Shown here: one piece after another, positions 11,577-30,627 of the stretch | Layout of the letters: every line of letters begins with the position of its first letter | Numbering within the stretch: the first letter of the stretch is position 1 | NCBI GenBank assembly: GCA_963793865.1 | Contig: CAWCBP010000014.1 | Coordinates: 224,001 to 288,000 of the forward strand | DNA: 64,000 nt | Direction: 5' to 3' | DNA from: an uncultured delta proteobacterium | GTDB lineage: Bacteria > Desulfobacterota > WTBG01 | Notes under the pieces: generated by a model | Database searches by the model: none | Told to the model about the DNA's origin: nothing | Seen by the model: the letters and a program-made list of their open reading frames with translations, nothing else | Made by a program: the position numbers and the translations under genes

Positions 11577-11580
11577 TGCA

Positions 11581-12814: not shown

Positions 12815-12832
12815 GGATATGCCTCCTGATGC

Positions 12833-14954: not shown

Positions 14955-15095
14955 GCCATTAAACAGACCTTATTTAGAATCTGTCTATTTGGTTCCCATG
15001 TTGAGTTGGGTCAGTATAGAAAAGTTCCATTCCCGTGTCAAGATAAACGCCTGAACGCGTCCTGCCCTATGACTGAAGATTCCGTAAAAAAACAG

Positions 15096-15146
15096 TTGAC
15101 AGATATATTTTTATATTCTAGTATTCCGGAATCGAAATATCCGGAA
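15096..15146 (+). promoter_or_regulatory. Sigma70 promoter with overlapping inverted-repeat operator
   Basis: TTGACA (15096-15101), 17-nt spacer, TAGTAT (15119-15124); inverted repeat TTCCGGA-N9-TCCGGAA (15124-15146). Confidence 0.7.
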
Positions 15147-15173
15147 CTGAACTAAAGAGAAAGAGAGGGTATC

Positions 15174-15890
15174 ATGGACAAGAAGGCGGTTGAGCGGGCA
15201 TTGAAAGAGGACCTGGGAGTCAAAAAGGAACTCATTGCGCTGAAGCCCTTAAAAGCGCTGCCGAAGGATATTGACGCATATGAAGGGGTGGCCGCGCCGG
15301 GACTGTGCGCCCAGATCGGCGAGGTGCTTAAGAGCGGGAGCATGTTTTACACCACCCGGGAGAACCACCAGTGCTATGAGGGCTTGATCGCGACCGGGGT
15401 GTGCGAGGTTTCACGCGAGGAATACCGCAAGGCGGTTGAGAGCTTCATTGATGACTTCCCCTACCACAAGGATGTCCCCACTGCCATGAGCTTTTATGAA
15501 ACCTGCATCAACGAGATAAAGCCGCCCAAGGTGGAAAACAGCTGCCTGGTGGTGGGTCCCTTGAGCAAAGTCGATGATCCCGACCTCGTCCTCATATTCT
15601 GCAATCCCAAACAGGCGGATATCCTCATACGCATCCAGGCCTACCTGGGAGACCTGGTTAAAGGATACGGGGGCAGCGGCGGTTGTCTGTTTACCATCCG
15701 TCACGCATTTCAGAGCCGGCAGCCGAGCTTTTCCACCAGCGATCTTTCTTGGAGGATGTTTGTGGGGCTCAATGAGAACGAGCTGACCGTGACCTATCCC
15801 TATGAGCAGCTCGCGCGGATAGCACCCCACATCAAGCAGACCGCGGATTATGTCAACAGCTTTTCCTCCATGTTTGACAACCTCGGGTAG
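15174..15890 (+). CDS. DUF169-family protein
   Basis: LCAQ…ENHQCYEG…GPL…PDLVLIFCNPKQ…C…ELTVTYP pattern typical of DUF169. Confidence 0.7.
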   Translation: MDKKAVERALKEDLGVKKELIALKPLKALPKDIDAYEGVAAPGLCAQIGEVLKSGSMFYTTRENHQCYEGLIATGVCEVSREEYRKAVESFIDDFPYHKDVPTAMSFYETCINEIKPPKVENSCLVVGPLSKVDDPDLVLIFCNPKQADILIRIQAYLGDLVKGYGGSGGCLFTIRHAFQSRQPSFSTSDLSWRMFVGLNENELTVTYPYEQLARIAPHIKQTADYVNSFSSMFDNLG

Positions 15891-15938
15891 GCGCGCAGTA
15901 ATGTGCGATGCATTCGCGGCGTAAGGCCGCTCCTACCG
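15885..15938. repeat. GTAG-family REP-like palindrome
   Basis: GGTAGGCGCG…GCGATGCATTCGCGGCGTAAGGCCGCTCCTACC. Confidence 0.7.
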
Positions 15939-15967
15939 TCAATTAACCTGTCCGGCGGGGAAAACAT

Positions 15968-17221
15968 ATGCCCCTCAAGTGTTACGAGCACTGCTGCTCC
16001 TCATGCATAGCCCTGGCCAATCTGGGTAAGATAGAAGGAGTGATCCCCATACTCCATGGCCCCCAGGCCTGCGCCTTCGGCAACCAGATGGGTTCCATGT
16101 TCTGCAGGCCGTCGCGGCTGCTCACCGTCGGGACCATGCTTAAGAAGAGCGAGGTGATCTTCGGTGGGGAGGAGAACCTCAAACAGCAGATCATCAATGT
16201 CTACCGCCAGTATAAACCCAGGATTATCGTCATCATCAGCACCTGTGTCCCCCAGCTCATCGGGGAGGACGTGAAGGGCGTCATCACCGAGCTGCAGGAG
16301 CAGATTCCTGAATTGAAGGTGACGTACTGCGAGACAGGATTCAATCATCCCCGGTCCACCCCCATGGGGAATGATGTTTCCTGGAAGGCCATCGTTGACG
16401 TTCTCGAGACGCAGGAGATGGTGAAAAACTCGGTAGGGCTGCTGGGGCGCGCGGGACAGGACGCGGACAGCCTGGGAACGCTCACCGCGCCCCTCCGGGA
16501 AGCGGGCATTACCACCTACGCCTTTCCCGCCGGCCACCTTGACGAGATGGCCGGGATCGTTAAGGCTGAATATCTCTGTCCCATTCAGCTGGTTCCCTAT
16601 CTCACCTGCAGGCGCTTGAGCGAGCGGTTCGGTTCGGTGGTAAAGTTTTTTGAGATTCCGGCGGGCATTGAAGGCACATCCCGTTTCCTGCGGGGTGTGG
16701 CGGAGCTCACCGGCAATCAGCAGCTCCCGGGGATCATTGACCGCGAGGAGGCACGGGTGCTTCCCCGCTTGCAAAAGATCCAGGCGCGCTTCAGGGAAGA
16801 GCCGGTCAGGGCCCTGCTGGTTACCGGGCCGTCCAATGAGATGTCCATTGGAAAAATCCTTGCCGAGTTCGGGGCCGAGGTAATCATCGTTCCCGCCATG
16901 CGCAACGCCTTCGCCCGTCAGGAGCAAAATATCCTTCGTGACCGCTACGGGTCCCGCATCACCTTTCATGAAGCTGACTTTGACACGGTGGCACAGCTGA
17001 CCGATGTGTATAAACCGGATGTGGTCTTTGCCGATTTTCAGGGGCGGGTTGAGCTGGTGCACCGGCTTGTCCCCTGCCTCATCAATGAAAATTACTTGAA
17101 TGAGTACGGGTACGACTATGCCATCGACTTTGGCGAGCATTTTTTTGAAAACCTCAAGATGCCGGTTTTCAGGGAGTGGCAGGATTTGATGGATCGCTAC
17201 GGGGAGGGCAACTATGCCTGA
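15968..17221 (+). CDS. Nitrogenase component-1-like reductase, subunit 1 (BchN/BchY-like)
   Basis: Three-Cys cluster-ligand pattern CSSC…HGPQAC…STC, plus EVIFGGEENL, LIGEDV, P-x-GIEGT-x-RFL. Confidence 0.8.
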   Translation: MPLKCYEHCCSSCIALANLGKIEGVIPILHGPQACAFGNQMGSMFCRPSRLLTVGTMLKKSEVIFGGEENLKQQIINVYRQYKPRIIVIISTCVPQLIGEDVKGVITELQEQIPELKVTYCETGFNHPRSTPMGNDVSWKAIVDVLETQEMVKNSVGLLGRAGQDADSLGTLTAPLREAGITTYAFPAGHLDEMAGIVKAEYLCPIQLVPYLTCRRLSERFGSVVKFFEIPAGIEGTSRFLRGVAELTGNQQLPGIIDREEARVLPRLQKIQARFREEPVRALLVTGPSNEMSIGKILAEFGAEVIIVPAMRNAFARQEQNILRDRYGSRITFHEADFDTVAQLTDVYKPDVVFADFQGRVELVHRLVPCLINENYLNEYGYDYAIDFGEHFFENLKMPVFREWQDLMDRYGEGNYA

Positions 17222-18962
17222 TGGTTCAGCGGGCGGTCAGCGGCGCGAGACGTTTTCAGCCGCCTCAAAGATGAAGGTGAAGGAGATTCATAAGCCCTCA
17301 TCTTTTGAGGGAGCGGTATGGGCCATGCAGGGCATAAGGGACATCCGCCTGATTTTTCACGCGCCGCCGGGATGCTACATGATGCAGCACATGTACTCCC
17401 TCTGTAATGAGTGGCATCCAGATTTTTACAGCACGCTTCTCTCGTACGGAAACGTGATGCAGGGGACAGAGGCGCAGCTGGAGAAGATCCTCGAAAAGGC
17501 GGCGGCGGAAAACCCCGCTGCGATTGTGGTGATCACCTCTCCGGTGGTGGAAATTACCGGTGATGATGTGGCGGGCGTTGCGAAAAAAGTGGGTTATGAC
17601 AGGACCGTGGTCATCCGCCCGGCCCTCGGAGGGTCGCTTGCGGAGGGAAAAGAGCAGGCCCTGCTTGTCCTCGCTGAGCTTATGGACCCGGCGGCGGAGA
17701 AGATGGAGAAAACGGTCAACCTTATCGGCCCGACCTACAACACCTTCAACTGGAGGGCTGATGTTTGTGAGCTGCGAAGAATGCTTTCGCATATCGGCGT
17801 GTCCGTCAATGCGGTGTTAAGCGCGGATTGTACGGTCGACCAGATTTGCAGGGCGCCGGGGGCGCAGCTCAACATCTGTGTCTATCCTTATGACTGCGGA
17901 GAGGCGCTTGCCCGGAGCATGCAGGAACGCTTTGGGCTGCCCTATGTTGCAGCTCGCGTTCCCATAGGATACCGGGAGTCGGCAGCCTGGCTGGAGGAGA
18001 TCGCCCGCTTTTTTCATATTGATGCGGGGGCCTATCTTGCCCGGGAGATGAAAAATGGTTTGGACCTGTTTACCTCGCTTCTGGTTTCCAACACCTTCTT
18101 TGAATCGAGCGTGGCGCTCTCCACCGACAACTGCGACAGCTACAGCGTGGGACTGAGCGGCTTCCTGCAGCGGGAGCTGGGCATGCACGTGTGCTTTGCC
18201 GCGGTATCCACTGAGAAGGCGGGGGAGACAGTTGCCGGGGCATGTGAGCGGGTTTTGCTCAATTCAAGTATCGATGAGAAAAAGAACCTGCTGCTCCAAA
18301 CCTCTCCCACCATTATTCTGGGCAATTATTATGATCTCAAACTGTCAACCGACCTGGGCTTTAAAAATTTTCTTTTCGCAGACATCCCCCTCATTGGCTA
18401 TATCTTCTCCGAGACCACCCCTTTCATGGGCTTTATGGGAGCGCAGCACCTTATCCAGGCAATCGGCAATGAGATCTATACCAAGATTTTTATCGAAACC
18501 AAGGGAGAGCTGGAAGGGGCCATCTCATCGGGCGAGGTGCACTGGGAACTGGATGCGGAACAGGCGTTGGGCAGGATGGCCCAGCTGCTTCCCCATTTTG
18601 TCCGCTCGATTGCCATCAAAAAGCTGCACCAGGTAGCTGATGGGATCGCCGTTGAGCGGGGGACAAGCGTGACCCTTGCCATTTTGCGGGAGGTGGCTGA
18701 ACGATATACGCCCACCCGGTTCAAGGCAAAGTTCTCAACTCTTTTTACGGATATGGAAGGCACAACCCGTCAGCCGGCCGGGGTGGATGATCCGGAGTTT
18801 ACCATGGAATGGGACGCGCCGGCACAAGAGATGCTGGAGATGGTACCCGCTGAATTCAGGCAGCAGGCGGTTGCGGGTACAGAGGCGTATGCGCGGGAAC
18901 ATGGCTACGGTGCCGTTTCAGTCCGGGTGGTGGAGGAGTATCGGAAGGAACTGGGCTTTTAG
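17214..18962 (+). CDS. Nitrogenase component-1-like reductase, subunit 2 (BchB/BchZ-like) with two C-terminal PCP_red-like domains
   Basis: HAPPGC, VNLIGPT…ADVCELRRML, PFMGFMGA; tails WELDAEQAL…PHFVRSIAIKKL and WDAPAQEML…VPAEFR…EAYAREHG; overlaps the upstream gene by 8 nt. Confidence 0.8.
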   Translation: MPDGSAGGQRRETFSAASKMKVKEIHKPSSFEGAVWAMQGIRDIRLIFHAPPGCYMMQHMYSLCNEWHPDFYSTLLSYGNVMQGTEAQLEKILEKAAAENPAAIVVITSPVVEITGDDVAGVAKKVGYDRTVVIRPALGGSLAEGKEQALLVLAELMDPAAEKMEKTVNLIGPTYNTFNWRADVCELRRMLSHIGVSVNAVLSADCTVDQICRAPGAQLNICVYPYDCGEALARSMQERFGLPYVAARVPIGYRESAAWLEEIARFFHIDAGAYLAREMKNGLDLFTSLLVSNTFFESSVALSTDNCDSYSVGLSGFLQRELGMHVCFAAVSTEKAGETVAGACERVLLNSSIDEKKNLLLQTSPTIILGNYYDLKLSTDLGFKNFLFADIPLIGYIFSETTPFMGFMGAQHLIQAIGNEIYTKIFIETKGELEGAISSGEVHWELDAEQALGRMAQLLPHFVRSIAIKKLHQVADGIAVERGTSVTLAILREVAERYTPTRFKAKFSTLFTDMEGTTRQPAGVDDPEFTMEWDAPAQEMLEMVPAEFRQQAVAGTEAYAREHGYGAVSVRVVEEYRKELGF

Positions 18963-18980
18963 ATTCGTGCGCGTAGAACC

Positions 18981-19032
18981 GGTAGGAGCGGCTTTCAGCC
19001 GCGAATGCATCGCGCATGAATGCGCTCCTACA
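18981..19032. repeat. GTAG-family REP doublet (REPIN-like)
   Basis: GGTAGGAGCGGCTTTCAGCCGCGAATGCATCGCGCATGAATGCGCTCCTACA. Confidence 0.8.
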
Positions 19033-19085
19033 GAAATTTTACATATCTTTGGCAAACGTTTCAGCGAACCCAGGGAGAGGGGCCA

Positions 19086-19556
19086 ATGACCAGGGCAGGC
19101 AAAGGCGGGAGGGCAACCGGCGAGATTAATGACCGGATGCTGGTGGTGAAGGACTTTATCGATGAGCTTTACAACAAGACCGTTTTTCGGAACGGGAGAG
19201 CCGCCAATTATGATTTAACCCCTGCTCAAATAAAGGCATTCTTTGCTTTCAAAGAGGATGACCGCGCGTATCCCATCGGCGAACTGGGCAGGAATGCCCG
19301 GGTCAAGAGCTCTACCATCACCGACATGATTGACCGGCTGGAAAAAGAGGGCATTGCCGAACGACTGAAAGACCACGGGGACCGGCGGGTGGTAAAAGTG
19401 CGGCTCACCACCAAGGGCAGGGAAATCAAGAATCAGTTTGTCGTAAGGATGCGATCCGGCATGGAGCAGACATTCTCAAAATTGAGCGAAGGGGAGAAAA
19501 AGGCCCTGCTTGATCACCTCAAGGGGGCATACGAGATATTGAAGAGAATAAAGTAG
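19086..19556 (+). CDS. MarR-family transcriptional regulator
   Basis: LTPAQ…IGELG…STITDMIDRLEKEG…DRRVVKVRLTTKG. Confidence 0.9.
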   Translation: MTRAGKGGRATGEINDRMLVVKDFIDELYNKTVFRNGRAANYDLTPAQIKAFFAFKEDDRAYPIGELGRNARVKSSTITDMIDRLEKEGIAERLKDHGDRRVVKVRLTTKGREIKNQFVVRMRSGMEQTFSKLSEGEKKALLDHLKGAYEILKRIK

Positions 19557-19596
19557 GACCGGCAAAAATCCATAATCATCGAGGATAGCATACGCC

Positions 19597-20277
19597 ATGC
19601 ATGACGTTCACCGTGATTCTCTCATCACAGAGAAAAAGAAACGGCAGGTAAAAAAATCCGGATCTGCTCATGCGCATGAAGGGCACGATCATTCCCACGA
19701 CCGTGATCACCCTCACGATCATGAAAAGCATCATGGCGACGATGATCATGGGCACGACCACGGGGCTCCTCACGGGCACGACCATGACCACGCCGAAGAT
19801 GCCTATGAAGAACATGATCAGGACTTCCATGGCCATGAACATGCTCACGGGCAGGGAGAGGATGAGGACCGGGCATTCGCGCACATCCACGAACACGGTC
19901 ATGATTTCTTTCACGCGCACCATCACACCCACCATCCGGAGCATGCGGGCGCGGTGCATAAGATTTTCGGTGATCCGCTGAGGGACTGGTTTGCCGCCTT
20001 GTTAATGCTGCTCCTGATGGGGGCGGGGTATTTCAAGTTGCTTCCCGGATACCTGCCGGAGGGGATGCTGCTCTGCGCCGCAGTTATCGGTGTTTTCCCG
20101 CTGCTTAAAAATGCGCTCTTTGATGCGCTCTATAAAAGGAGGTTCCGTTTTGAATTGCCGGTCGGAATCCTCCTGCTTGCCGGGCTCTTCATGGGGAAGT
20201 TTCTGGAGGTGGCCCTCATTGCCCTGCTGCTGCTGGTGGGAAGTTTTATGAGGCTCAATTTTTCATGGAAGGACTGA
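19597..20277 (+). CDS. His-rich membrane protein resembling a detached P1B-ATPase N-terminal metal-binding/MA-MB segment
   Basis: About 100 aa of His/Asp-rich sequence followed by hydrophobic helices containing GVFPLLKNALF. Confidence 0.65.
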   Translation: MHDVHRDSLITEKKKRQVKKSGSAHAHEGHDHSHDRDHPHDHEKHHGDDDHGHDHGAPHGHDHDHAEDAYEEHDQDFHGHEHAHGQGEDEDRAFAHIHEHGHDFFHAHHHTHHPEHAGAVHKIFGDPLRDWFAALLMLLLMGAGYFKLLPGYLPEGMLLCAAVIGVFPLLKNALFDALYKRRFRFELPVGILLLAGLFMGKFLEVALIALLLLVGSFMRLNFSWKD

Positions 20278-20287
20278 ATAACCATGC

Positions 20288-22222
20288 ATGATGTTGCACG
20301 GGATGCGCTGGTTGTTAAGCAATCGGATGGATGCCGTTCCTGCGGGGAGTCACGTTTTGAACAATGTTACTGAACGGTACTGGGCATTTACCAATCCCCT
20401 GGCGTGTATAATTCTCATCTTAATCGCCTGGCGCCAGGGAGAGACCGCACCCGGCGGCATGTATCTCGCACTTGCTGCTGTCGTGCTTTCCGGCTATCCC
20501 ATCGTCAGAAATTCCGTGGTATCCACCATAACCAACAGGAAGTTGAATGCCGAGGTGCTGGTTACCTGCGCGCTCATTGCCTCCATCTGGGTGGGCGAAT
20601 ATCTGGCAGCGGCCATGGTGGTGCTCATGATGAACATCGGCGAGCTTCTGGAGGATGCCACCATAGCCAGGACCGGCGAGGCGGTTCGTGCGCTGATGGA
20701 GCTGAAATCGGATACTGCCCGGGTTGTAAGAGATGGCCGCGAGATGGAATTGGATATCGGTGCGGTCTGCATCGGTGATGTGGTGCTGGTCAGGGCTGGT
20801 GAAACCATCCCCATAGACGGCAGGATAAAAGAGGGGCGGGGTGAAGTGAATCAGGCTCCCATCACGGGTGAATCTGCCTTGATTGCCAAGGGCCCGGGAG
20901 ATGAAGTTTTCGGCGGAACATTGAACCAGCTGGGGGTATTCAGGATTGAAGTGACCCGGGTTGCTGCGGAAACGGTTCTGTCAAAAATCGTGGATTTGGT
21001 TCGCCGCGCGCAAGCGGCAAAACCACCCATTGAAAGGATAGCTGATCGTTTTGCCGGCTGGTTTACTCCAACCATGCTGGGCCTGGCATTTTTGGTCTGG
21101 TTCGTTACCGGAGAGGTGCTTCGTGCGGTAACCGTCCTGGTGGTTGCGTGTCCCTGCGCGCTGGTAATCGCCACACCGACGGCCGTGGTTGCGGGTATCG
21201 GAAATGCGGCACGCCGGGGTATCCTTATCAAAGGAGGGGCGGTGCTTGAAATCATAGGCAAGCTCACCACATTTGTATTTGATAAAACCGGAACGCTCAC
21301 CTACGGCACCCCGGCAGTGCGCCTTGTGCGCAGTTTCGGAAAGGCGTCCGAGCATGAGGTTCTCAGCCTTGCCGGCACGGCGGAGAAACATTCGGAACAC
21401 CCTCTGGCGGAAGCCATTTTAAGGTACTGCCGCGAAAAAGATGCGGAGCCGTCTGAGCCGGAGGAGACGAATGTGGTGGTGGGAAGGGGTGTTGTAGCCA
21501 GAAAAAACGGCACAGAGATTATCGTCGGCAATGAACGCCTTGTGGAAGAAAAAGGCATGCCTCTGACTGACGAGGCGAAGACCTTTTTGAGTGATATGGC
21601 TGACGCGGGCTCAACCGGCGTGCTGGTGGGGCATGGATCGGTGCTTGTCGGCGGTATCGGCATCGCGGATGCGGTCAGGGCGGATGTCAGGCAGTCTATT
21701 GAAAATATAAGGCGCATGGGCATCAGGAAGGTGCTGATGCTGACAGGGGACACGCGGACCGTTGCCGAGGTGATTGGCGCAGGGGTTGGACTCGATGCAA
21801 TAGTGGCCGATCTTCTTCCCGAAGAGAAGCTCCGCTACATAAAAAAATTGAGGGAGCAGGGCGATGTAGTAGCCATGGTAGGAGATGGAATCAATGATGC
21901 GCCTGCGCTGGTCGAAGCAGACGTGGGTATTGCCATGGGGGTTATGGGTACGGATGCAGCCATCGAAGCGGCAGACATAGCCCTTACCGGCGACGATCTC
22001 ACCAAGGCATCAGAGGCCATCGCCCTCTCCCGGAAAACGGTCAGCATAATCAAGCAGAGCATTTTCATGTCGATTGCAATAAACGGGATTGCCCTCATCC
22101 TTGCCTCAGCCGGTGAGATCGGTCCAGTTGTCGGTGCGATCGTTCACAATGTTGGCTCGGTAGTGGTGGTGGGTAATTCGTCGCGCCTTATAGGATATCG
22201 ATTTGATAAAGCGCTGCATTGA
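20288..22222 (+). CDS. Heavy-metal-translocating P1B-type ATPase
   Basis: TGES, CPC (VACPCAL), DKTGT, SEHPLA, TGD, GDGINDAP. Confidence 0.92.
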   Translation: MMLHGMRWLLSNRMDAVPAGSHVLNNVTERYWAFTNPLACIILILIAWRQGETAPGGMYLALAAVVLSGYPIVRNSVVSTITNRKLNAEVLVTCALIASIWVGEYLAAAMVVLMMNIGELLEDATIARTGEAVRALMELKSDTARVVRDGREMELDIGAVCIGDVVLVRAGETIPIDGRIKEGRGEVNQAPITGESALIAKGPGDEVFGGTLNQLGVFRIEVTRVAAETVLSKIVDLVRRAQAAKPPIERIADRFAGWFTPTMLGLAFLVWFVTGEVLRAVTVLVVACPCALVIATPTAVVAGIGNAARRGILIKGGAVLEIIGKLTTFVFDKTGTLTYGTPAVRLVRSFGKASEHEVLSLAGTAEKHSEHPLAEAILRYCREKDAEPSEPEETNVVVGRGVVARKNGTEIIVGNERLVEEKGMPLTDEAKTFLSDMADAGSTGVLVGHGSVLVGGIGIADAVRADVRQSIENIRRMGIRKVLMLTGDTRTVAEVIGAGVGLDAIVADLLPEEKLRYIKKLREQGDVVAMVGDGINDAPALVEADVGIAMGVMGTDAAIEAADIALTGDDLTKASEAIALSRKTVSIIKQSIFMSIAINGIALILASAGEIGPVVGAIVHNVGSVVVVGNSSRLIGYRFDKALH

Positions 22223-22242
22223 TTGGATAACGGGTTCATTCT

Positions 22243-23202
22243 ATGGAGATTGATTTTTCGCAGGCGGGTTTGTGGACATTGATGGTTGGCACCTTTACGC
22301 TGGCGGCCACCCACACCGTATCGCCGGATCACTGGTTTCCCTTTGTCATGGTGGGCAGGGCAAACAAGTGGAAGGTTTCCTGGGTGCTGGGACTTGCTCT
22401 GCTTGCCGGCATCGGTCACGTGGGAACCTCGGTTTTCATCGGGATGGTGGGGGTGTTTGCGGAAAAGGGTGTCTCAAAAAATATCGCCCTGTTTCTGGAA
22501 AAGGCCACCCCCATGCTGCTCATCGTTTTCGGTTTCGGATATGCCGCGTATGCCCTTTACAAACAACGTGTGGGATCCCTGGGGCACTCCCACGGCATAC
22601 CCATTATCAATAAGTGGCTCGGTATCAATGCCCATGCTTATGATCTGCCGGGACAAACCCACGGCCATGCCCAGGATGTGTGTCTTACAATCGGCGGGAA
22701 GTTTGTTATTTGTCTTCATAAACTGGATATAGTGACGTACGTCGTTCATGATGATCACATGCACGGCTATGACGCCACCGCCGAGGCGGATCATGAACAT
22801 AAGCACTTTCACGACGAGAAACTGCATGAGCACCGGCACAAACACAGCGTCAAAGGGATCGACGGGTTCGTCCACAGCCATGGAGATGAAAACCCCCAGG
22901 AGGGGGTGCGTGACCTGAAGGATAAAAGGGCCGGATGGGGATTGGTGGCGATTCTGGGCTTGACCCCCTGTATTGCCCTGCTGCCCCTGACCTTTGCTGC
23001 GATTAAGTACGGCACCGGGGCAGTGATACTGGTCAATATAGCATTTACCATTGGCACGCTGGGAACCATTGTCCTGTTTACCTGGCTGGGATACCTGGGG
23101 CTTTCCTGGCTTAAACTTGACTTTTTTGAGAAGTACGGTGACGTAATCGCCGGCACCATCATCGGTCTGCTGGGACTTGCCACGAAGGTGTTTGAGCTAT
23201 AG
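22243..23202 (+). CDS. Ni/Co transporter-like membrane protein (NiCoT/RcnA/UreH-like)
   Basis: HTVSPDH (HxxxxDH) motif, GHV, His-rich loop, GLTPC, several TM helices. Confidence 0.7.
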   Translation: MEIDFSQAGLWTLMVGTFTLAATHTVSPDHWFPFVMVGRANKWKVSWVLGLALLAGIGHVGTSVFIGMVGVFAEKGVSKNIALFLEKATPMLLIVFGFGYAAYALYKQRVGSLGHSHGIPIINKWLGINAHAYDLPGQTHGHAQDVCLTIGGKFVICLHKLDIVTYVVHDDHMHGYDATAEADHEHKHFHDEKLHEHRHKHSVKGIDGFVHSHGDENPQEGVRDLKDKRAGWGLVAILGLTPCIALLPLTFAAIKYGTGAVILVNIAFTIGTLGTIVLFTWLGYLGLSWLKLDFFEKYGDVIAGTIIGLLGLATKVFEL

Positions 23203-23232
23203 CATGCATCAATAACCGGAAGGGAGGGTGGT

Positions 23233-23987
23233 ATGAGTGATATCATTACCGACATAGGATTTGATTCCAAAAGTCTATGGCAGGCCAAGGGATTTGAGCC
23301 GCACTCGTTTCCGGAGAGCACCTGGCCGCATTTAAGGGAGCTGCAATTGAAACGGCTCACCAGCGCAGAAGGCGAAGATTTGACCCCGGTGCAGGAGATG
23401 ATCAGGCGTCCCATGTGTGAAGGCACCTTTCGCCACTTTCATAATCAAAAGATAGAAAAGCTGGCCCTGATGTGGGTGCTTATCTCCAAAAGCATTGCAG
23501 GAGGAAGCTGGGTGGGATGGCCCACTGATGACTACGATTTTCCCGCCCTCATCATTGCCTGGGAGGAATCGAAGAAACGGCTGCACATCATCATCGATCT
23601 CATGCCTATAGCGGACTGCGTGGAATACGAGTGGTACCGGGAAAAGTACCTGGATGGCATAGAACCCGTATACAATGAATACAAGGATCTCATCGGGCCG
23701 AACTCGACCTACCGCTGGTTCCGTGCCATGCAGGGTCCCTACCACATCTTTGATGGGCCGGGTGAAAAACGGGACAGGTCGCTGCAGTGTGAAATTGAGT
23801 ATATCAAACAATGGGTCAGGGTGGTACAGGAGGCGGAGCCGGTAAAGGATGAAGAGTATAAACAATACGTGATCCGGCGGAAGAAGATCCTTCAGACACA
23901 GCTGCGGCAGCGGGACCCGCTGGGATCGGTGCTGATGCGCACCCTTGGAGAGGAACTGGGGAAGAAAACCATCTTGGGTACACATAG
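23233..23987 (+). CDS. RCCR/ferredoxin-dependent bilin reductase-like protein (paralogue 1). The ORF track runs to 24069; the real stop is probably TAG at 23985-23987.
   Basis: WPTDDYDFPAL…IIDLMPIADCV…YREKY…WFRAMQGPY…YIKQW…RDP…LG; colinear with 25310..26089. Confidence 0.6.
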
Positions 23988-23993
23988 AGGGGG

Positions 23994-24165
23994 AATTTCA
24001 AAGTCCAAAGATCAAATTTCAAAACAAGTTCAAATGACCAAAATGCAAATGTATACAAATCCTCTTTGAGGCAGTGTGCATATCTTGGGGAGCAGGAGCG
24101 TTTTGACTATTTGATATTTGGACTTTGGATTTGCTTTGGATTTGGTGCTTTGAAATTTGGATTTG
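23994..24165. repeat. Inverted element built of degenerate A-rich/T-rich short repeats
   Basis: Left arm AATTTCAAAGTCCAAAGATCAAATTTCAAAACAAGTTCAAATGACCAAAATGCAAAT; right arm TTTGATATTTGGACTTTGGATTTGCTTTGGATTTGGTGCTTTGAAATTTGGATTTG. Confidence 0.65.
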
Positions 24166-24244
24166 CACCACAATGATTACTGTGCGCGATTTACACTTAG
24201 CTCAAACGCGGATTGAATCTAAAGAACGGGAAAGGAGGAACGCT

Positions 24245-24649
24245 ATGGCTTCGATGCTTGAAATAATGAAACGTGGTGCTGAGCTGGTCAATGCGGATGA
24301 GGAGTTCAAGGCCCAGATGGTTGAGCTTGACGGGGATATCATCTTCTGGCGTTTTGAAGATGACCAGCCCGCGGTTACCACCCGGCTGGACAAAGGAGTG
24401 ATAGTGGTTGAGGGAGGCGAGCATCCCGATTCCCAGATCGGGATGAAGCTCAAGGCCAAGGTGCTCCTGGACGTGATTGACAATTCCCTCGAGGCCAAGA
24501 TGATGTACACCTACACGGAGTTAGTCAAAGGCGACATTGAGCTGGCCCGTCACCATGTGTTTGCACTGGTTCCCTACATCTACGGCATGCAGGACTACTA
24601 TGATTCCGACGCAGCATTCAAGAAGATGGTGGTTGAAAAAAAGGGGTGA
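24245..24649 (+). CDS. SCP2 sterol-carrier-like lipid-binding protein
   Basis: AAGGAGG RBS; GVIVVEGGEHPDSQIGMKL…LVKGDIELA, an SCP2-like pattern. Confidence 0.55.
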   Translation: MASMLEIMKRGAELVNADEEFKAQMVELDGDIIFWRFEDDQPAVTTRLDKGVIVVEGGEHPDSQIGMKLKAKVLLDVIDNSLEAKMMYTYTELVKGDIELARHHVFALVPYIYGMQDYYDSDAAFKKMVVEKKG

Positions 24650-24656
24650 GTAAGCG

Positions 24657-24890
24657 ATGACCGTACATGAGCAGGAACACGCTATCGTAATAGATGAGGA
24701 GAAGTGCATCGGCTGCGGGATATGTGTGGACTTCTGTAATGTTGATGCCATTGCAGTTAACCAGGAGCGGGGGGTGCTGGAAGTCGTTGCCCTGGAAGAC
24801 TGCATTGAATGCCACAGCTGCCAGCAGAACTGCTCCGAGGGCGCCATCATGGTGTTTCCTCAGGTGGAAGATTCCCTGAAAAATCTGTAG
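24657..24890 (+). CDS. 2x[4Fe-4S] ferredoxin
   Basis: CIGCGICVDFC and CIECHSCQQNC. Confidence 0.9.
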   Translation: MTVHEQEHAIVIDEEKCIGCGICVDFCNVDAIAVNQERGVLEVVALEDCIECHSCQQNCSEGAIMVFPQVEDSLKNL

Positions 24891-24920
24891 GGGCACATTT
24901 ATGTGCGATGATGTAACTCT

Positions 24921-24967
24921 GTAGGAGCGCATTCATGCGCGATTAATTAGCGGCTAAAGCCGCTCCG
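24921..24967. repeat. GTAG-family REP-like palindrome
   Basis: GTAGGAGCGCATTCATGCGCGATTAATTAGCGGCTAAAGCCGCTCC. Confidence 0.7.
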
Positions 24968-24988
24968 GCCAGATGCGGGAGGGTTCCG

Positions 24989-25225
24989 GTGAGTGAAATT
25001 CAATTTATTCTGGATCAGGAAAAGTGCATAGGTGCTGACCGATGTGAAGGGGTGTGCGCCCGCATCTGTCCCCCTGATATCATCGAGTATGCCGATGAGG
25101 GCGGCAAAAAAGTGCCCTTCGTTACCGACATGGAGCTCTGCATGAAGGATCACGGCTGCCAGAACAGCTGTCCCGCGGGGGCCATTACCATACTTCCTCC
25201 GCAGGGGGAAGGAAGGGGGTTTTGA
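24989..25225 (+). CDS. Ferredoxin with an atypical second cluster motif
   Basis: CIGADRCEGVCARICP and CMKDHGCQNSCP (Asp in place of the second Cys). Confidence 0.8.
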   Translation: MSEIQFILDQEKCIGADRCEGVCARICPPDIIEYADEGGKKVPFVTDMELCMKDHGCQNSCPAGAITILPPQGEGRGF

Positions 25226-25309
25226 TGAAAGTAGCCGGGACACTCTAATTTATAATGATAGAGCCATTTGATGATCTAATGCTTCATTAACCAGGAAAGG
25301 AGGTACTCC

Positions 25310-26089
25310 ATGCCTGAATATCATCTGGAAAAAGAAGTTGGCTTTAAGTGTGACACCTGGCCGGCCAAGAATGTCCCCAATATCCGGCCATTCCCGGAGG
25401 AGTGCTGGGAAATTCTCCGGACCCTTGATCTCCGGCCATTGAGAGGTGAATACCAGGGCTACAATATGGATCTGCTGCTGGAGAATCTAGATTCTCCCAT
25501 GGCCAAAGGGGCCGTTCGGGTTTTTGAATCAGATAAGATCGAGAAGGTTTGCATCTGGTGGCAGGTGCTCTCAGGCCGGTCGCTTTCTGGGGCTGTCATC
25601 GGTTTCCCGCGGGATGATTATGATTTTCCGGTCATGCTGATTGACTGGGACGAAGGCCGCGGTCCCGGGCATGGGATGGTTGATCACATGCCGCTCTGCG
25701 ATATCGTGCTCAATGAAGAGTACCGCTTGAAATATCTTGATAAACTGGACAACACCTTCCGTGAGTACTATGACATTATCGGGCCTCCCTCCCTGCACGT
25801 CTGGTTTCGGACCCTGTCCGGCCCCTACTACAGTTTCTTCAGAACGCAGGCAGGGGGAACCCCGGAATATCGGCAGCGCATTTTAAATCTTCCGCTCAGG
25901 TATTTGGAGAAGTGGGCTGAAACGGTGAAAGAGGCACAGCCCATCACCGATCCGGCCCACCGGGAGTATTGCATTAAGAGAAAACGGGTCCTCCAGGAGT
26001 GGCTGTTTGTCCGCGATCCGGTGACATCGGTCATGCTGCGTTGCTATGGAAAGGAAATCGGTTCGCTGGTGATGAAGGGACTCTCTTAA
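25310..26089 (+). CDS. RCCR/ferredoxin-dependent bilin reductase-like protein (paralogue 2)
   Basis: FPRDDYDFPVM…VDHMPLCDIVLNEEYRLKY resembles RCCR LDLPxRKDLVLxPDYL; YLEKW…RDP…YG tail. Confidence 0.65.
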   Translation: MPEYHLEKEVGFKCDTWPAKNVPNIRPFPEECWEILRTLDLRPLRGEYQGYNMDLLLENLDSPMAKGAVRVFESDKIEKVCIWWQVLSGRSLSGAVIGFPRDDYDFPVMLIDWDEGRGPGHGMVDHMPLCDIVLNEEYRLKYLDKLDNTFREYYDIIGPPSLHVWFRTLSGPYYSFFRTQAGGTPEYRQRILNLPLRYLEKWAETVKEAQPITDPAHREYCIKRKRVLQEWLFVRDPVTSVMLRCYGKEIGSLVMKGLS

Positions 26090-26125
26090 GCAGAAATATG
26101 TATACCGGAAAAGGAGGTTTATGCA

Positions 26126-26404
26126 ATGCCGAAAATCAGTCAGGATGATATCGTTCAGATTGAAATACGGATTGATGAAGAAAAGTGTGTCGGCTGCGGC
26201 ACCTGCATATCAGTGTGCCCGGTCAATCTGCTTGAACTGAAGGTGGTGGGCAAGAAGAAGAAGAGCTGTGCGCCGGACCAGAGCTTTTGCCTCAAATGCC
26301 ATATGTGCGAATTTCACTGCGGCTACGAGGCGATCAAGGTCTATCCTCCTTTTGAGGGCCAGCAGCCCACCGATCAGGCAAGGGTACCCATGCGCCATCG
26401 ATAG
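26126..26404 (+). CDS. 2x[4Fe-4S] ferredoxin
   Basis: CVGCGTCISVCP and CLKCHMCEFHC. Confidence 0.9.
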   Translation: MPKISQDDIVQIEIRIDEEKCVGCGTCISVCPVNLLELKVVGKKKKSCAPDQSFCLKCHMCEFHCGYEAIKVYPPFEGQQPTDQARVPMRHR

Positions 26405-26431
26405 GGGCAGTAACCGATAAGCATATATTAT

Positions 26432-26545
26432 ATGGAGGGACGCACTCCGTTGCGTCCGCTAATTTATTCGGCCACGACAGAGCGTGGCCCTCCAGAACCT
26501 TATTAAGCAGTAGGAGCGGCTTCAGCTGCGATGTATCGCGCAGGA
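26432..26545. repeat. Two adjacent REP-like palindromes
   Basis: TGGAGGGACGCACTCCGTTGCGTCC…GGCCACGACAGAGCGTGGCCCTCCA, then GTAGGAGCGGCTTCAGCTGCGATGTATCGCG. Confidence 0.6.
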
Positions 26546-26566
26546 AGCGGAATTAAACAAGGGCGT

Positions 26567-28000
26567 ATGAAGGTACTCCTTATCCAGCCACCCATGTATC
26601 ATCAAAAGGTTCAGTTATCCCCCAATTTGGGACTGGCCTCCATTGCCGCCGTTCTTGAGCGGGATGGTGTCCGGGTGGGAGTGCTTGATGCCGCCGCGGA
26701 AGATCTCTCCTATACGGATATTTTGGAACGGGTCCGGGCCTTTAAGCCCCGCGTCGTGGGCGCCGGGGGGCAAACGCCGGTGGCACCCCGATCCATGGCC
26801 ATTTTTAGCCGCATCAAACAGGAGATAAGCCGGGACATTACAACCATTGCCGGCGGTCCGCACTTCAGCTTTACCGACCATGAATCACTTCAGGAGTGCC
26901 GGGAACTTGACATCGTGGTGCGCGGTGAAGGAGAGGCGACCATCAGTCATTTGTGCAAAGCACTCGAAACGGGAGAATCACTCAACAATGTACAAGGCAT
27001 AACCTTCCGTGACCACAATGGATCCATCGTGCGCAATGCCGACCGTGAGCCGATTGCCGATATTGACTCCCTGCCATTCCCTGCCTGGCACCTGTTTCCG
27101 CTGGACAAGTACCACTGGGTGGGAAACCGGCTGCTTGCCGTTTCCTCATCCCGGGGATGCCCGTTCAGATGCCCCTATTGCATAACCTGGAAAGTCCATT
27201 CGGGAGTCCGCCATAGAAGGCCTGCCAAAATAGTTGAAGAAATGGTATGGGTTAAAAAGAATTTTAACCACGATACCTTCTTCTTCCAGGATGATGCCTC
27301 GTTTCTGGTGCGTGAGCAGATGGAGGGGTTTCTGGACGCACTGGAAGCCTGCGGAGAGAAGCTGTACTGGTACTATGAAACCAGGGAGGATGTTTTTCTC
27401 GGTTACCGGGATCTCTGGAAGAGGATGAAGCACAACGGCCTGTTTAAAATTGTCTTCGGGCTTGAGACCCCGGACCCTGCAATGCGGGAGAGGTTCGGCA
27501 AAAAGGCCTTTGACGCGCGGGCGGTTGAGCAGATGATGGATACGCTTGAGCACGAGCTGGACATAATGGTGTCCGTGTATCTCCTGTTCGGGCTGCCTGA
27601 GGATACGGAAGAGTCTTTGAAGGAGATACTTGATTATGGTAAGCATCTCTATCCCGCCCACTGCTCATTTATCGTCGGCTCCATGGCAACCCCCTTTCCC
27701 GGCACTGATATGTATGAGGACCTGAAGCGGCGGGATATGATAACCAGCTATAACTGGAAAGACTACGGGTTCGGCACCTCGGTTATCAGGACCAGCATCG
27801 CGCCGGAAAAACTTCAGGAGGTATTTAAGGGCTTTTGGATAAAAACCTATGTGCGGCCCAGGGCATTTTTACGCCAGATTCAATTCCTGTTATCCGGCAA
27901 CCGCTTTCGCCGGGCAATGGCAAAACAATATGTAAAGATGGCCGTGGAAATGATATCGGATGTCAAGAAGATGAGCGGTGAAAAGGATGAGGGTTTCTAG
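26567..28000 (+). CDS. Cobalamin-binding radical SAM enzyme (class B; BchE-like)
   Basis: N-terminal B12 domain (PNLGLASIAA…GGPH…RGEGE); SRGCPFRCPYCITWK (CxxxCxxC); TPFPGT. Confidence 0.88.
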   Translation: MKVLLIQPPMYHQKVQLSPNLGLASIAAVLERDGVRVGVLDAAAEDLSYTDILERVRAFKPRVVGAGGQTPVAPRSMAIFSRIKQEISRDITTIAGGPHFSFTDHESLQECRELDIVVRGEGEATISHLCKALETGESLNNVQGITFRDHNGSIVRNADREPIADIDSLPFPAWHLFPLDKYHWVGNRLLAVSSSRGCPFRCPYCITWKVHSGVRHRRPAKIVEEMVWVKKNFNHDTFFFQDDASFLVREQMEGFLDALEACGEKLYWYYETREDVFLGYRDLWKRMKHNGLFKIVFGLETPDPAMRERFGKKAFDARAVEQMMDTLEHELDIMVSVYLLFGLPEDTEESLKEILDYGKHLYPAHCSFIVGSMATPFPGTDMYEDLKRRDMITSYNWKDYGFGTSVIRTSIAPEKLQEVFKGFWIKTYVRPRAFLRQIQFLLSGNRFRRAMAKQYVKMAVEMISDVKKMSGEKDEGF

Positions 28001-28020
28001 AGGTGGGGGAGTTTTTTTTC

Positions 28021-28049
28021 TTGCCAACCCAATTATTTGCTGATAGAGT
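28021..28049 (+). promoter_or_regulatory. Putative sigma70 promoter of metK-ahcY
   Basis: TTGCCA-N17-TAGAGT with an extended -10 TG. Confidence 0.5.
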
Positions 28050-28112
28050 AGCGGCCATTTTGTTAAGGATTTAAAGGGGATAGTTTAGTAATCACTCTAA
28101 AGGAGATGTGCC

Positions 28113-29279
28113 ATGTCGATGACCAATTACCTTTTTACCTCTGAATCAGTGACAGAGGGGCATCCGGACAAGGTTGCCGATCAAATATCTGATTCCATTC
28201 TTGACGCCATTCTTGCCAAGGATAAAAAGGCGCACGTTGCCTGTGAAACCATGGTTACAACCGGCATGGCCATTGTTGCCGGTGAAATCACCACCAACTG
28301 CTATGTACACATACCCGATATTGTCAGGCAAACCATAAAGGACATAGGATACAATGATTCAAGCATGGGCTTTGACTGGGAAACCTGCGCGGTTATCACC
28401 TCCATTGATACCCAGTCACCGGATATCGCCATGGGTGTCAATCCCCGGAAAGGTAAAAAGCAGGGTGCCGGGGACCAGGGACTGATGTTCGGCTACTCCT
28501 GCGCGGAGACCCCGGAGCTGATGCCCATGCCCATCAGCTATGCCAATAAGCTGGCGCGACGACTGGCTGAAGTCCGAAAGAAAGGCATCCTTGATTTTTT
28601 GAGGCCCGACGGGAAGTCACAGGTTACCGTGGAGTATCTTGACGGTCATCCCAAGCGGGTTGATACCGTGGTGATCGCGGCCCAGCACAACCCCACGGTC
28701 AAGGACAAGGTTTTGCGCGAAGGCATTATAGAGGAAGTGATAAAGCAGGTGATACCGGCAAAAATGCTGGACGGTAAGACCAAGTACCATATTAATTCTA
28801 CCGGCCGGTTTGTGCAGGGCGGTCCCAAGGCTGACTGCGGCCTGACCGGGAGAAAGCTTATCTGTGATACCTACGGCGGACAGGGGAGTCACGGCGGCGG
28901 TTCCTTTTCCGGGAAAGATCCTTCCAAGGTGGACCGGTCGGCGTCCTATATGGCCCGCTATGTCGCAAAAAATATTATTGCCGCCGGCCTGGCCAGACGG
29001 TGCGAGGTACAGCTTTCCTACAGCATCGGCGTTCCTGAACCGGTTTCGGTGATGATCGACACCTCCAACACCAGCAAGATTCCGCCCGACGAAATTGCGC
29101 GGCTGGTTATAAAATATTTCCGTTTGACCCCGGCGGAGATGATAAGTTACCTTGATCTCCTGCGGCCGATCTACAAAAAGACCGCCACCTACGGGCATTT
29201 CGGAAGAACGGAACCTGAGTTTACCTGGGAGCGGACGGACATGGCTGATAAACTTCGCAGGGCAGCCGGTCTCAAGTAA
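28113..29279 (+). CDS. metK: S-adenosylmethionine synthetase
   Basis: [36 protein letters not shown]. Confidence 0.98.
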
Positions 29280-29304
29280 TGATACGGCTTGAAAGGGGCA
29301 AGGA

Positions 29305-30561: not shown

Positions 30562-30595
30562 CGCTTTGCAAATAATAAAATTTCTGCTGTAAGTT

Positions 30596-30627
30596 AAAGA
30601 AAAGGGCCTTCGGGTCCTTTTCTTTTT
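30596..30627 (+). terminator. Rho-independent terminator
   Basis: AAAGAAAAGGGCC-TTCG-GGTCCTTTTCTTTTT. Confidence 0.85.

Follow-up and report, generated by a model that had tools for sequence, protein, structure and literature searches.

The 64,000-nucleotide stretch of DNA analysed here (the window), from an uncultured member of the Desulfobacterota, carries sixteen co-oriented genes on its plus strand between positions 15174 and 30561, from a DUF169 gene through ahcY, in which a pair of nitrogenase-like subunits stands beside metal pumps, two proteins related to ferredoxin-dependent bilin reductases (FDBR), three ferredoxins, a small SCP2-fold protein and a B12-binding radical S-adenosylmethionine (SAM) enzyme. 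Pfam and NCBIfam scans of the window bear out the gene list that an initial annotation had drawn up for 15174-28000, with every gene on the plus strand. The array continues beyond 28000, an extension that the annotation missed, through metK and ahcY to a terminator-like hairpin (30596-30625, plus strand) in which a sequence scan finds a 13-bp stem followed by a run of T.

The first genes, which we call module B, encode a 238-residue DUF169 protein with seven cysteines (15174-15890; PF02596, 82.7 bits), the nitrogenase-like D-type subunit D1 (417 residues, 15968-17221; PF00148, 189 bits) and the K/B/Z-type subunit K1 (582 residues, 17214-18962; PF00148, 217 bits), whose residues 533-576 match the PCP_red domain (PF08369, 42 bits). 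Module C begins with a MarR-family regulator (19020-19556 as listed; PF01047, 40.3 bits), followed by a histidine-rich membrane protein of 226 residues with two or three hydrophobic helices and no family match (19597-20277), a P1B heavy-metal ATPase (20288-22222; TIGR01525, 586.5 bits against a cut-off of 346.25; TIGR01512, 483.9 bits) and a histidine-rich six-helix membrane protein that is possibly an RcnA/NicO-type nickel or cobalt transporter (22243-23202; NF007454, 22 bits against a cut-off of 195). It then runs through FDBR-like protein 1 (FDBR1, 23233-24069; PF05996, 34.6 bits, above the cut-off of 31), the SCP2-fold protein of 134 residues (24245-24649), two ferredoxins with 2x[4Fe-4S] (Fd1, 24657-24890, Fer4_7, 49.7 bits; Fd2, with seven cysteines, 24989-25225, Fer4, 27.3 bits and Fer4_7, 28 bits), FDBR-like protein 2 (FDBR2, 25310-26089; PF05996, 28.3 bits, below the cut-off), a third 2x[4Fe-4S] ferredoxin (Fd3, 26126-26404; Fer4, 49.2 bits) and the radical SAM enzyme (26531-28000 as listed; PF02310, 72 bits; PF04055, 66.9 bits). 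MetK, a methionine adenosyltransferase (28113-29279; TIGR01034, 584.8 bits), and AhcY, an adenosylhomocysteinase (29305-30561; TIGR00936, 630.2 bits), complete the array. Comparison with orthologs shifts three starts: that of MarR to 19086 or 19137, that of the small protein from the listed 24125 to Met 24245, where its orthologs begin, and that of the radical SAM enzyme to about 26567.

The strongest resemblance of the nitrogenase-like pair to known tetrapyrrole reductases lies in its K subunit. The best NCBIfam families for K1 are BchB (TIGR01278, 165.8 bits against a cut-off of 490.35) and BchZ (TIGR02014, 132.5 bits against 529), and BchB also comes first in a comparison with solved structures. 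The PCP_red tail is present in most K1 matches within the family, five truncated or shorter ones showing PF00148 alone. A second PCP_red copy in K1 was considered and rejected: pairwise alignment of the tail halves scores 27 against 24 +/- 4.6 for shuffled sequences, and Pfam gives one stretch. For D1 the best family is NifE (91 bits), then NifD types, with BchN (TIGR01279) at 66.1 bits and BchY (TIGR02015) at 29.4 bits, all far under their cut-offs; a CfbD hidden Markov model (HMM) covers only the first 100 or so residues (51 bits), and NifE and MarD stand ahead of BchN among solved structures. We placed both subunits in a tree of 29 rows, of which 11 are references from annotated plasmids (BchN, BchB, BchY, BchZ, NifD, NifK, NifE, NifN and three Treponema nitrogenase-like proteins) and none is a MarDK protein. 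The K clade is supported at 100/100 and, on long branches, pairs with the one BchZ row as its sister (88/84) rather than nesting in BchZ. The D clade, also at 100/100, sits on a long stem and is not nested in NifDK, and its position beside NifDE and the three Treponema rows is weakly supported. The pair had first been read as DPOR- or COR-like, with grouping among non-tetrapyrrole enzymes such as MarDK as the outcome that would count against this. The resemblance stands for K, through its PCP_red tail and its place as sister to BchZ, and orthology to BchNB or BchYZ falls, the scores being far below cut-off; the D clade takes no firm position outside NifDK.

The pattern of cluster ligands is informative. 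In our alignment the D clade keeps cysteine at the three cluster-ligand columns common to NifD, NifE, BchN and BchY, and has isoleucine or valine at the column where NifD and NifE have a cysteine that we take to be the FeMo-co position. The sole canonical cysteine of the K clade (Cys54 of K1, present in 8 of 8 K-clade rows) falls at the column of BchB Asp36, where BchZ, NifK and NifN also have cysteine; Asp36 is the fourth ligand of the NB cluster in DPOR (PMC13474568, cited throughout, like 10.1101/765248 and PMC10151467, for the accessible part of its text). The pair keeps at most four of the six P-cluster cysteine columns. The genome, 98.6% complete, has no match to NifB, and a simple cluster in D1/K1 is therefore likely; together with three cysteines from D and one from K, this agrees with one COR-type [4Fe-4S] cluster between the subunits. 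The absence of NifB and the differing ligand pattern rule out a true nitrogenase or a MAR-like enzyme. A bacteriochlorophyll pathway is likewise ruled out, by the lack of any CobN/BchH-family gene in the genome and by the distance of D1 and K1 from the BchNB and BchYZ cut-offs; the Mg-chelatase genes already reported as missing from the window are missing genome-wide. Separately, both clades carry extra invariant cysteines (D1 residues 9, 46 and 214; K1 residues 222, 228 and 344) without counterpart in the BchN, BchY, BchB, BchZ, NifD, NifK, NifE or NifN rows, which may form a second metal site.

No gene for an ATP-dependent reductase of the NifH/BchL type lies within the window. In the genome (14 contigs) strong NifH-like genes number exactly two, adjacent to each other on contig 6, where a gene scan finds a second nitrogenase-like locus, module A, consisting of MarR, H1, H2, D2 and K2 (L012:7815-12990). 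D2 is 58% identical to D1 and K2 about 50% identical to K1; in this genome K2 is split between two frames (11298-11807 and 11842-12990, with one TAA) by a frameshift or a stop. Both H1 and H2 retain the Walker A motif and the two cluster cysteines, and their orthologs fall into two sister lineages. Their identity is 43-44% with a rhizobial NifH and 35-40% with BchL and BchX; their best family after NifH is CfbC (294-299 bits). The order MarR-H1-H2-D-K is constant in all seven loci examined. Three relatives represented among these loci (G172, G261 and G339) have a single K-like gene each, and the two of these loci that were read, in G172 and G339, hold both H genes. Retention of both genes beside a single D/K pair suggests that H1 and H2 form a heterodimer rather than serving as one reductase per pair. 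Genomes of the class contain up to three D/K paralog pairs, and in G035, G289 and G411 D1K1 is followed by a further MarR gene and D3K3. We infer that the H1-H2-D2K2 module is a widespread core, to which D1K1 and the FDBR module are an extension.

The neighbours of these loci in relatives offer new support, by gene context, for what may be a link to tetrapyrroles. Two-domain class II chelatase genes adjoin D3, with or without K3, in G035, G289 and G419; their best family is the CfbA nickelochelatase (55-80 bits, cut-off 120), with ferrochelatase at 38-66 bits, and a geranylgeranyl-reductase-family gene lies beside the chelatases near D3K3. The locus in G419 (L086, G419:C205, 12143-18263) has D3 without a K partner, then two tandem CfbA/ferrochelatase-like genes, feoB and an FDBR-like gene. 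In G108 the H1-H2 module is directly preceded, on its own strand, by hemL, hemB and cobA/hemD.

The assignment of the 23233 gene product to the bilin reductase fold proved sound. An FDBR family alignment of 46 rows, 42 of whose members match PF05996, yields a profile that matches PebB (E 5e-32) and also HY2, PebA, PcyA and RCCR. The AlphaFold2 model of FDBR1 (pLDDT 88.8) matches PebB, HY2, PcyA, PebA and RCCR in Foldseek with probability 1.00 and TM-scores of 0.54-0.75. FDBR2 is 38% identical to FDBR1, and its orthologs are 85-93% identical between families. In 10 of 10 orthologs FDBR2 has aspartate at both the central-strand column and the C-terminal (RDP) column, which we take to be the catalytic aspartates of PebS/PcyA-type enzymes. 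Searches of the genome for haem oxygenase (PF01126) gave no match and for ChuW/HutW none above cut-off (the best HutW-model match reaches 194.7 bits against 400), so that the genome has no known source of bilins. The FDBR-like family is large in this lineage: FDBR1 has matches in 32 of the 42 genomes of the class, 3-13 in each, while in a phylum-wide sample of 401 genomes the PF05996 cut-off is passed in 13, which belong without exception to three families of this class; a single genome has up to 27 first-look candidates. One FDBR-like copy is fused to a ferredoxin domain.

Two further loci in this genome carry relatives of these genes. A second cassette (C1:520202-522072; L070:10146-12072) combines two FDBR-like genes with a paralog of the SCP2-fold protein (31% identity), beside NuoE/NuoF-like, Fe-S and FAD-binding proteins. 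Elsewhere on C1 (C1:437216-438004; L071:5216-6004), this apparent anaerobe encodes a homolog of the oxygen-dependent, HemF-type coproporphyrinogen oxidase (PF01218, 101 bits; NF003727, 106.7 bits, below cut-off), whose gene is flanked by a PNPOx-like gene and an aldehyde:ferredoxin oxidoreductase gene and adjoins an FDBR-like gene. HemF itself has the FDBR fold.

The small protein encoded between FDBR1 and the first two ferredoxins had been assigned to SCP2, an assignment that the fold upholds and the HMM does not. Its AlphaFold2 prediction is confident in three of five models (pLDDT 88.9), and the top Foldseek matches are UbiJ-SCP2 and SCP2 proteins, at TM-scores of 0.5-0.6; the Pfam SCP2 family (PF02036) gives 15.5 bits (E 0.022) against a cut-off of 21.3. 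UbiJ is a carrier of hydrophobic biosynthetic intermediates, and from the modelled fold we read the small protein as a probable carrier for a hydrophobic substrate. The radical SAM enzyme, for its part, keeps the BchE-like architecture first proposed for it and has BchE (TIGR02026) as its best family, with residues 16-472 of 489 aligned, and fails at the level of orthology, scoring 207.7 bits against a cut-off of 481.35. It also resembles HpnJ (156 bits) and HpnR (129 bits), the HpnJ and P-methylase families score nearly as high as BchE, and the genome holds about 19 paralogs with B12-binding and radical SAM domains. MetK and AhcY genes follow the radical SAM gene in three of the nine loci that show it, a PfkB-family kinase gene does so in a fourth, and an FrhB-family gene does so in G406. 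The presence of SAM-recycling genes suggests methyl transfer, that is, a tailoring step.

The MarR protein of module C, whose orthologs align from residue 28-37 onward, has no cysteine and two histidines, which makes an organic inducer look likelier than a metal. The first reading had seen a metal-transport trio, of which the P1B ATPase is certain (CPC at residue 288, DKTGT at residue 332), the histidine-rich protein lacks a family match and the RcnA-type match is weak. The histidine-rich protein has 36 histidines among its 226 residues, in the N-terminal half, and is a separate gene 5' of the P1B ATPase in five other genomes, a two-gene layout that rules out a single frameshifted gene here. 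The six-helix protein has 22 histidines, a histidine-rich loop and the motif HTVSPDH, an instance of the HX4DH motif that presumably marks the RcnA/NicO family. At least one pump gene is found in the MarR-headed block of nine of the ten loci examined in full, and none in that of G419.

How far these genes form a unit can be judged from the relatives. We surveyed all 42 genomes of the class, counting K1 orthologs at 62% identity or more and FDBR1 orthologs at 68% or more. K1 orthologs occur in 9 genomes and FDBR1 orthologs, marking module C, in 13, with both in 8. One genome has K1 only (87% complete); five have module C without K1, two of them with another K type and three without any K (59, 87 and 93% complete). 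Because related genomes are not independent samples, these counts serve only as description. Within module C, the order FDBR1, small protein, Fd1, Fd2, FDBR2, Fd3 is the same in all 13 loci over the extent of their contigs. Among the ten longer loci the radical SAM gene is adjacent in nine, the tenth ending at a contig end, and MarR heads eight, the upstream side of the other two lying beyond view. The block from MarR and pump to the radical SAM gene recurs in genomes of four families. DUF169-D1-K1 is found in this order only within the window's family, in three genomes (the window, L013 and L017); DUF169 is not beside D1K1 in G035 or G289, and G108 has a radical SAM gene upstream of D1. More widely, K1-like genes occur in 8 of the 401 phylum-sample genomes, all of the window's class; a K-like gene of any type occurs in 22 of the 42 class genomes, and the K1 matches listed form 116 sequence clusters at 46% identity or more.

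The initial annotation treated the array as one block behind a single promoter and operator and looked to conservation of the gene combination for support. Co-orientation holds, and a single fixed operon does not: in the three relatives with long contigs (G035, G289 and G406) the MarR-to-radical-SAM block and D1K1 lie at separate places, and we therefore regard the array as a join of two units. The combination itself is conserved as co-occurrence, in 8 of 9 K1 genomes, and adjacency is confined to two genomes with different orders, the window, where D1K1 is upstream of module C, and G108, where it is downstream of the radical SAM gene. Adjacency in two families and in different arrangements suggests selection for linkage. 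A consensus scan places a promoter-like site (TTGACA-17 nt-TAGTAT, 15096-15124, plus strand) 5' of the DUF169 gene, and just after it a repeat, TTCCGGAA / ATCCGGAA, can be read in the sequence; a single promoter and operator for the whole block is an unproven candidate. Sequence comparison of the three MarR-linked promoters reveals no common operator beyond a 7-nt half-site, and an Rfam scan of 14000-32000 gave nothing over the gathering score. Two metagenome runs labelled RNA-Seq, probably of DNA or of uncertain kind, yielded only short contigs of 90-99% likeness. The spacer between K1 and MarR, 57 nt by the listed open reading frame and about 120-175 nt if MarR begins at 19086 or 19137, contains a palindromic repeat resembling repetitive extragenic palindromic (REP) elements (18982-19031, without assigned strand). 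This palindrome has 89 copies genome-wide at four or fewer mismatches and is very abundant in metagenome contigs of four runs; at 18982-19031 the depth is very high and contigs break. A partial copy lies at 26510-26530, just 5' of the radical SAM gene.

We propose that these genes are part of an oxygen-independent system, scattered over the genome and under MarR control, for tailoring a hydrophobic cyclic tetrapyrrole. We favour a biosynthetic direction, toward a reduced, methylated metallo-tetrapyrrole, and do so tentatively, holding this reading to be a real possibility that falls somewhat short of probable. It draws on three families, found side by side here, whose characterised members have tetrapyrrole substrates; from the families, folds, ligand residues, synteny and co-occurrence that we observe, we infer the class of substrate, the sequence of steps, the metal and the direction. 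In our model, the ATPases H1 and H2, encoded on the other contig, would pair with D1/K1 and pass low-potential electrons to it. D1/K1, with one all-cysteine [4Fe-4S] cluster at the subunit interface (three cysteines from D and one from K), as proposed for BchYZ, would reduce a C=C bond of the ring. FDBR1 and FDBR2 would take electrons directly from the three ferredoxins and reduce vinyl, ethylidene or bridge double bonds in sequence, in the manner of PebA and PebB, while the SCP2-fold protein would hold the hydrophobic intermediate. The radical SAM enzyme would then add a methyl group or close a ring, with MetK and AhcY recycling SAM, and the P1B ATPase, its histidine-rich partner and the RcnA-like protein would control a transition metal of the nickel, cobalt, zinc or copper class. 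The earlier suggestion, that the cluster reduces or opens scavenged tetrapyrroles or builds a new one, is thus partly upheld in its tetrapyrrole element, by the K tail and tree, the FDBR1 fold and the chelatase and hem neighbours; of the three outcomes named with it as refuting, none clearly came about.

Several observations weigh against the proposal. The scores of D1, K1 and the radical SAM enzyme are all far below curated equivalog cut-offs, the D subunit is without clear affinity to BchN or BchY by HMM, structure match or tree, and the tree is limited by its few references (11 rows) and long branches. FDBR1 has alanine at the central aspartate column, followed by Trp-Glu-Glu, in 10 of 10 orthologs, with the RDP motif kept. 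This genome holds at least 14 FDBR-like copies (for example C1:27221-27889, C1:520223-521528, C1:440019-440675, C8:473111-473734 and C14:217385-218044), whose neighbours include aldehyde:ferredoxin oxidoreductases, PNPOx-like and HemF-like proteins, flavoenzymes, flavodoxin and a FadL-type porin. The family may act on many non-tetrapyrrole substrates: its expansion in the lineage weakens the tetrapyrrole inference, and the paralogs in contexts that do not look tetrapyrrole-related mean that FDBR likeness alone is no proof of a bilin substrate. Exporter-looking pumps and a separate MarR for each module are seen more often in inducible catabolism or detoxification than in the synthesis of a cofactor, and uptake-type DUF1302/DUF1329 genes follow K2 in G035, G108 and G289 (with MMPL and BNR genes in G108). 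The modules are patchily distributed among close relatives and, as described above, separable. Finally, no chelatase lies beside any module in this genome, whose hem genes and sole CbiX-type gene are found on contig 8, at a distance from every module.

The pumps, regulators and uptake genes might instead reflect catabolism or salvage, in which an exogenous hydrophobic metallo-tetrapyrrole is taken up from sediment and reduced stepwise, the radical SAM enzyme attacks the ring and the pumps expel the released nickel, cobalt, zinc or copper; possible substrates are chlorophyll or bacteriochlorophyll breakdown products, haem, cobamides, F430 and metal porphyrins. We consider this reading rather unlikely. 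Exporter-type pumps accompany MarR in nine of ten loci, each module has its own MarR with an organic inducer the likelier one, and the uptake-type neighbours include, besides those following K2, a DUF1329 gene after the radical SAM gene in G406. RCCR and FDBRs act downstream of tetrapyrrole breakdown, the FDBR-like paralogs stand beside catabolic-looking enzymes, the distribution among relatives is patchy, and metagenomes from 11 studies, of freshwater, sediment and soil, contain DNA of the organism or its near kin. However, all characterised tetrapyrrole-reducing nitrogenase-like enzymes are biosynthetic, and ATP-driven reduction would be a costly means of catabolism. The genome searches for haem oxygenase and ChuW/HutW found no known ring-opening enzyme, the SAM-recycling genes point to methyl transfer, and the chelatase and hem genes beside nitrogenase-like loci in relatives also argue for synthesis. 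Were the system catabolic, it could be the first pathway by which cobamide, F430 or chlorophyll-type macrocycles are degraded anaerobically.

A bolder version spans both directions: that non-phototrophic Thermodesulfobacteriota of freshwater sediments make or fully dismantle an undescribed tetrapyrrole by means of up to three BchYZ-like reductases served by an H1/H2 heterodimer, of FDBR-fold enzymes that act on the macrocycle or on a ring opened anaerobically by the radical SAM enzyme, in place of the products of haem oxygenase, and of operon-borne handling of nickel, cobalt or zinc. In this full form we think the idea quite unlikely to be correct.

More doubtful still, and in our view improbable, is a substrate that is not a tetrapyrrole at all, with the FDBR-like pair, the SCP2-fold carrier, the ferredoxins and the radical SAM enzyme serving to reduce and methylate another hydrophobic conjugated molecule, for example a polyene, isoprenoid quinone, aromatic compound or lipid, and the nitrogenase-like enzymes reducing something unrelated. 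The metal pumps are hard to square with a purely organic substrate, and the PCP_red tail and BchB/BchZ affinity of the K subunits, like the chelatase and hem genes beside nitrogenase-like loci, speak against it. Several observations nevertheless favour this explanation. The FDBR-like expansion (in 32 of 42 class genomes, and above cut-off in 13 of the 401) has most of its copies beside aldehyde:ferredoxin oxidoreductases, old-yellow-enzyme-type and FAD enzymes, flavodoxin and FadL; the second FDBR-FDBR-SCP2-like cassette is accompanied by NuoEF-like and FAD-binding proteins; the radical SAM enzyme resembles the hopanoid enzymes HpnJ and HpnR; SCP2 proteins carry lipids, UbiJ being the best match here; a geranylgeranyl-reductase-family gene lies beside D3K3; and haem oxygenase was not found in the genome, hence there is no classical bilin source. 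MAR and ISR, moreover, are nitrogenase-like enzymes with non-tetrapyrrole substrates, but NifB, which accompanies the complex clusters of C-S-cleaving enzymes, was not found here (PMC13474568).

That the array is a chance mosaic of a metal-resistance operon, an unrelated redox operon, a nitrogenase-like pair and metK-ahcY, joined by rearrangement at REP elements, is very improbable: two internal junctions (18982-19031 and 26510-26530) do coincide exactly with REP-like copies, three relatives have D1K1 apart from the FDBR module, the transporters differ between loci and are absent from that of G419, and metK-ahcY is a common housekeeping pair, but the MarR-and-pump-to-radical-SAM block recurs in four families and its core order from FDBR1 to Fd3 does not vary among 13 loci, K1 co-occurs with module C in 8 of 9 genomes, and D1K1 adjoins it in two families in different arrangements.

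The surroundings of the array have features of their own. Directly upstream of the intact 15-kb cluster, gatB, gatA and aspS (10731-14876, minus strand) are each broken into several fragments in different frames. Contig 4 has diverged second matches to the aspS and gatB fragments, at 39-64% identity, and none was found for the gatA fragment; the broken genes may be remnants of a paralogous aspS-gatCAB set in decay, or may reflect assembly errors at this place. The genome has two RpoD-type sigma factor genes, one just 3' of the cluster (31090-32916 of the window) and the other near the H1-H2 module (L012:15015-16772). DUF169 proteins have at least five paralogs in the genome (for example C1:21824-22480, C12:56244-56939 and C13:21044-21748), one of which is encoded between two aldehyde:ferredoxin oxidoreductase genes, near the FDBR-like copy with the best Pfam score.

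We return to the reading that we favour, an oxygen-independent system that tailors a tetrapyrrole, since its interest lies in how it would extend what is known. Our literature search found no description of a gene combination of nitrogenase-like, FDBR-like and B12 radical SAM enzymes, and the string 'desulfo' is absent from the main text of PMC10151467 and of 10.1101/765248. The functions known for nitrogenase-like enzymes are those of DPOR, COR, CfbCD, MAR, ISR and Nfa (PMC13474568). A large family with a BchZ-like K subunit and tandem NifH-like genes would add another such function. To our knowledge, the bilin reductase fold is regarded as a feature of phototrophs and, among heterotrophs, of a few aerobic ones. 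Its role would be widened by a strictly anaerobic lineage whose genomes have a dozen or more FDBR-like paralogs each and for which no haem oxygenase was found. Should the product be a new cofactor or pigment, or should the system degrade nickel, cobalt or magnesium tetrapyrroles without oxygen, it would bear on the making and recycling of the "pigments of life" in anoxic sediments, and the genes are compact enough for heterologous reconstitution.

Among individual parts, the small protein resembles UbiJ and UbiT in being a stand-alone SCP2 fold among soluble enzymes with a hydrophobic substrate, but the match reaches a TM-score of only 0.5-0.6, the Pfam score is below cut-off and no ubiquinone genes lie nearby. 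The radical SAM enzyme shares with BchE the B12-binding and radical SAM architecture over a nearly full-length alignment; it differs in its score, less than half of the BchE cut-off, in its nearly equal likeness to HpnJ and P-methylase and in its many paralogs in the genome. FDBR1 and FDBR2 are like PebA, PebB and RCCR in fold, in being two diverged paralogs within one gene block with its own ferredoxins and in the alignment of their central-strand and C-terminal Asp-Pro motifs. Unlike those systems, they occur in a non-phototrophic anaerobe with a dozen or more paralogs per genome, in which haem oxygenase was not found, and FDBR1 has alanine for the central aspartate. The pre-PcyA clusters, which encode non-photosynthetic relatives of FDBRs, contain haem oxygenase, V4R proteins and globins (Rockwell et al. 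2023, PMC10151467); going by the accessible part of that account, the array here differs from them, in that no haem oxygenase, V4R or globin genes are seen in it.

The nitrogenase-like modules can be set beside three known groups. BchXYZ and BchLNB (Group V) share with them a two-subunit core of the nitrogenase component 1 fold, a K subunit with the PCP_red tail and BchB and BchZ as its best HMMs, three cysteines from D and one from K, with the K cysteine, as in BchZ, at the column of BchB Asp36, and a separate NifH-like ATPase encoded in the genome. They differ in that D1 and K1 score one third or less of the equivalog cut-offs, that D is not close to BchN or BchY, that the reductase genes lie on another contig as a conserved tandem pair, H1 and H2, that there are up to three D/K pairs and extra invariant cysteines, and that no Mg-chelatase family gene occurs in the genome and no photosynthesis genes were seen. 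The CfbABCDE pathway to F430 differs in that the enzyme here is a D/K heteromer with a BchB-type tail, in a bacterial host and with no methyl-coenzyme M reductase context seen, and in that beside the modules no CfbB- or CfbE-type genes were noticed, though no search aimed at them was made; it is similar in using a NifH-like and a NifD-like reductase on a metallated sirohydrochlorin derivative, with CfbC the next-best family for H1 and H2, CfbA-like chelatases beside D3 in relatives, D3 without K in G419 and, possibly, a nickel or cobalt transporter.

The last of these is Group VI, defined by NifH phylogeny (Meheust et al. 2020, 10.1101/765248) and known from Elusimicrobia, Gracilibacteria and Myxococcales. 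The accessible parts of its published accounts (10.1101/765248, PMC13474568) do not mention a link to FDBR-like proteins, SCP2 proteins, ferredoxins or metal pumps. No proteins labelled as Elusimicrobia appear among the 119 K1 matches or the top 120 H1 matches listed, most of which are unnamed, so that this is weak evidence. In their description, however, Group VI enzymes are much like those studied here: they are uncharacterised, their NifH-like protein is about 40% identical to NifH (43-44% here), NifB is absent, D has isoleucine or valine at the presumed FeMo-co cysteine column, at most four of the six P-cluster cysteines are kept, and the genes are associated with B12 radical SAM enzymes and predicted to serve tetrapyrrole reduction (10.1101/765248, PMC13474568).

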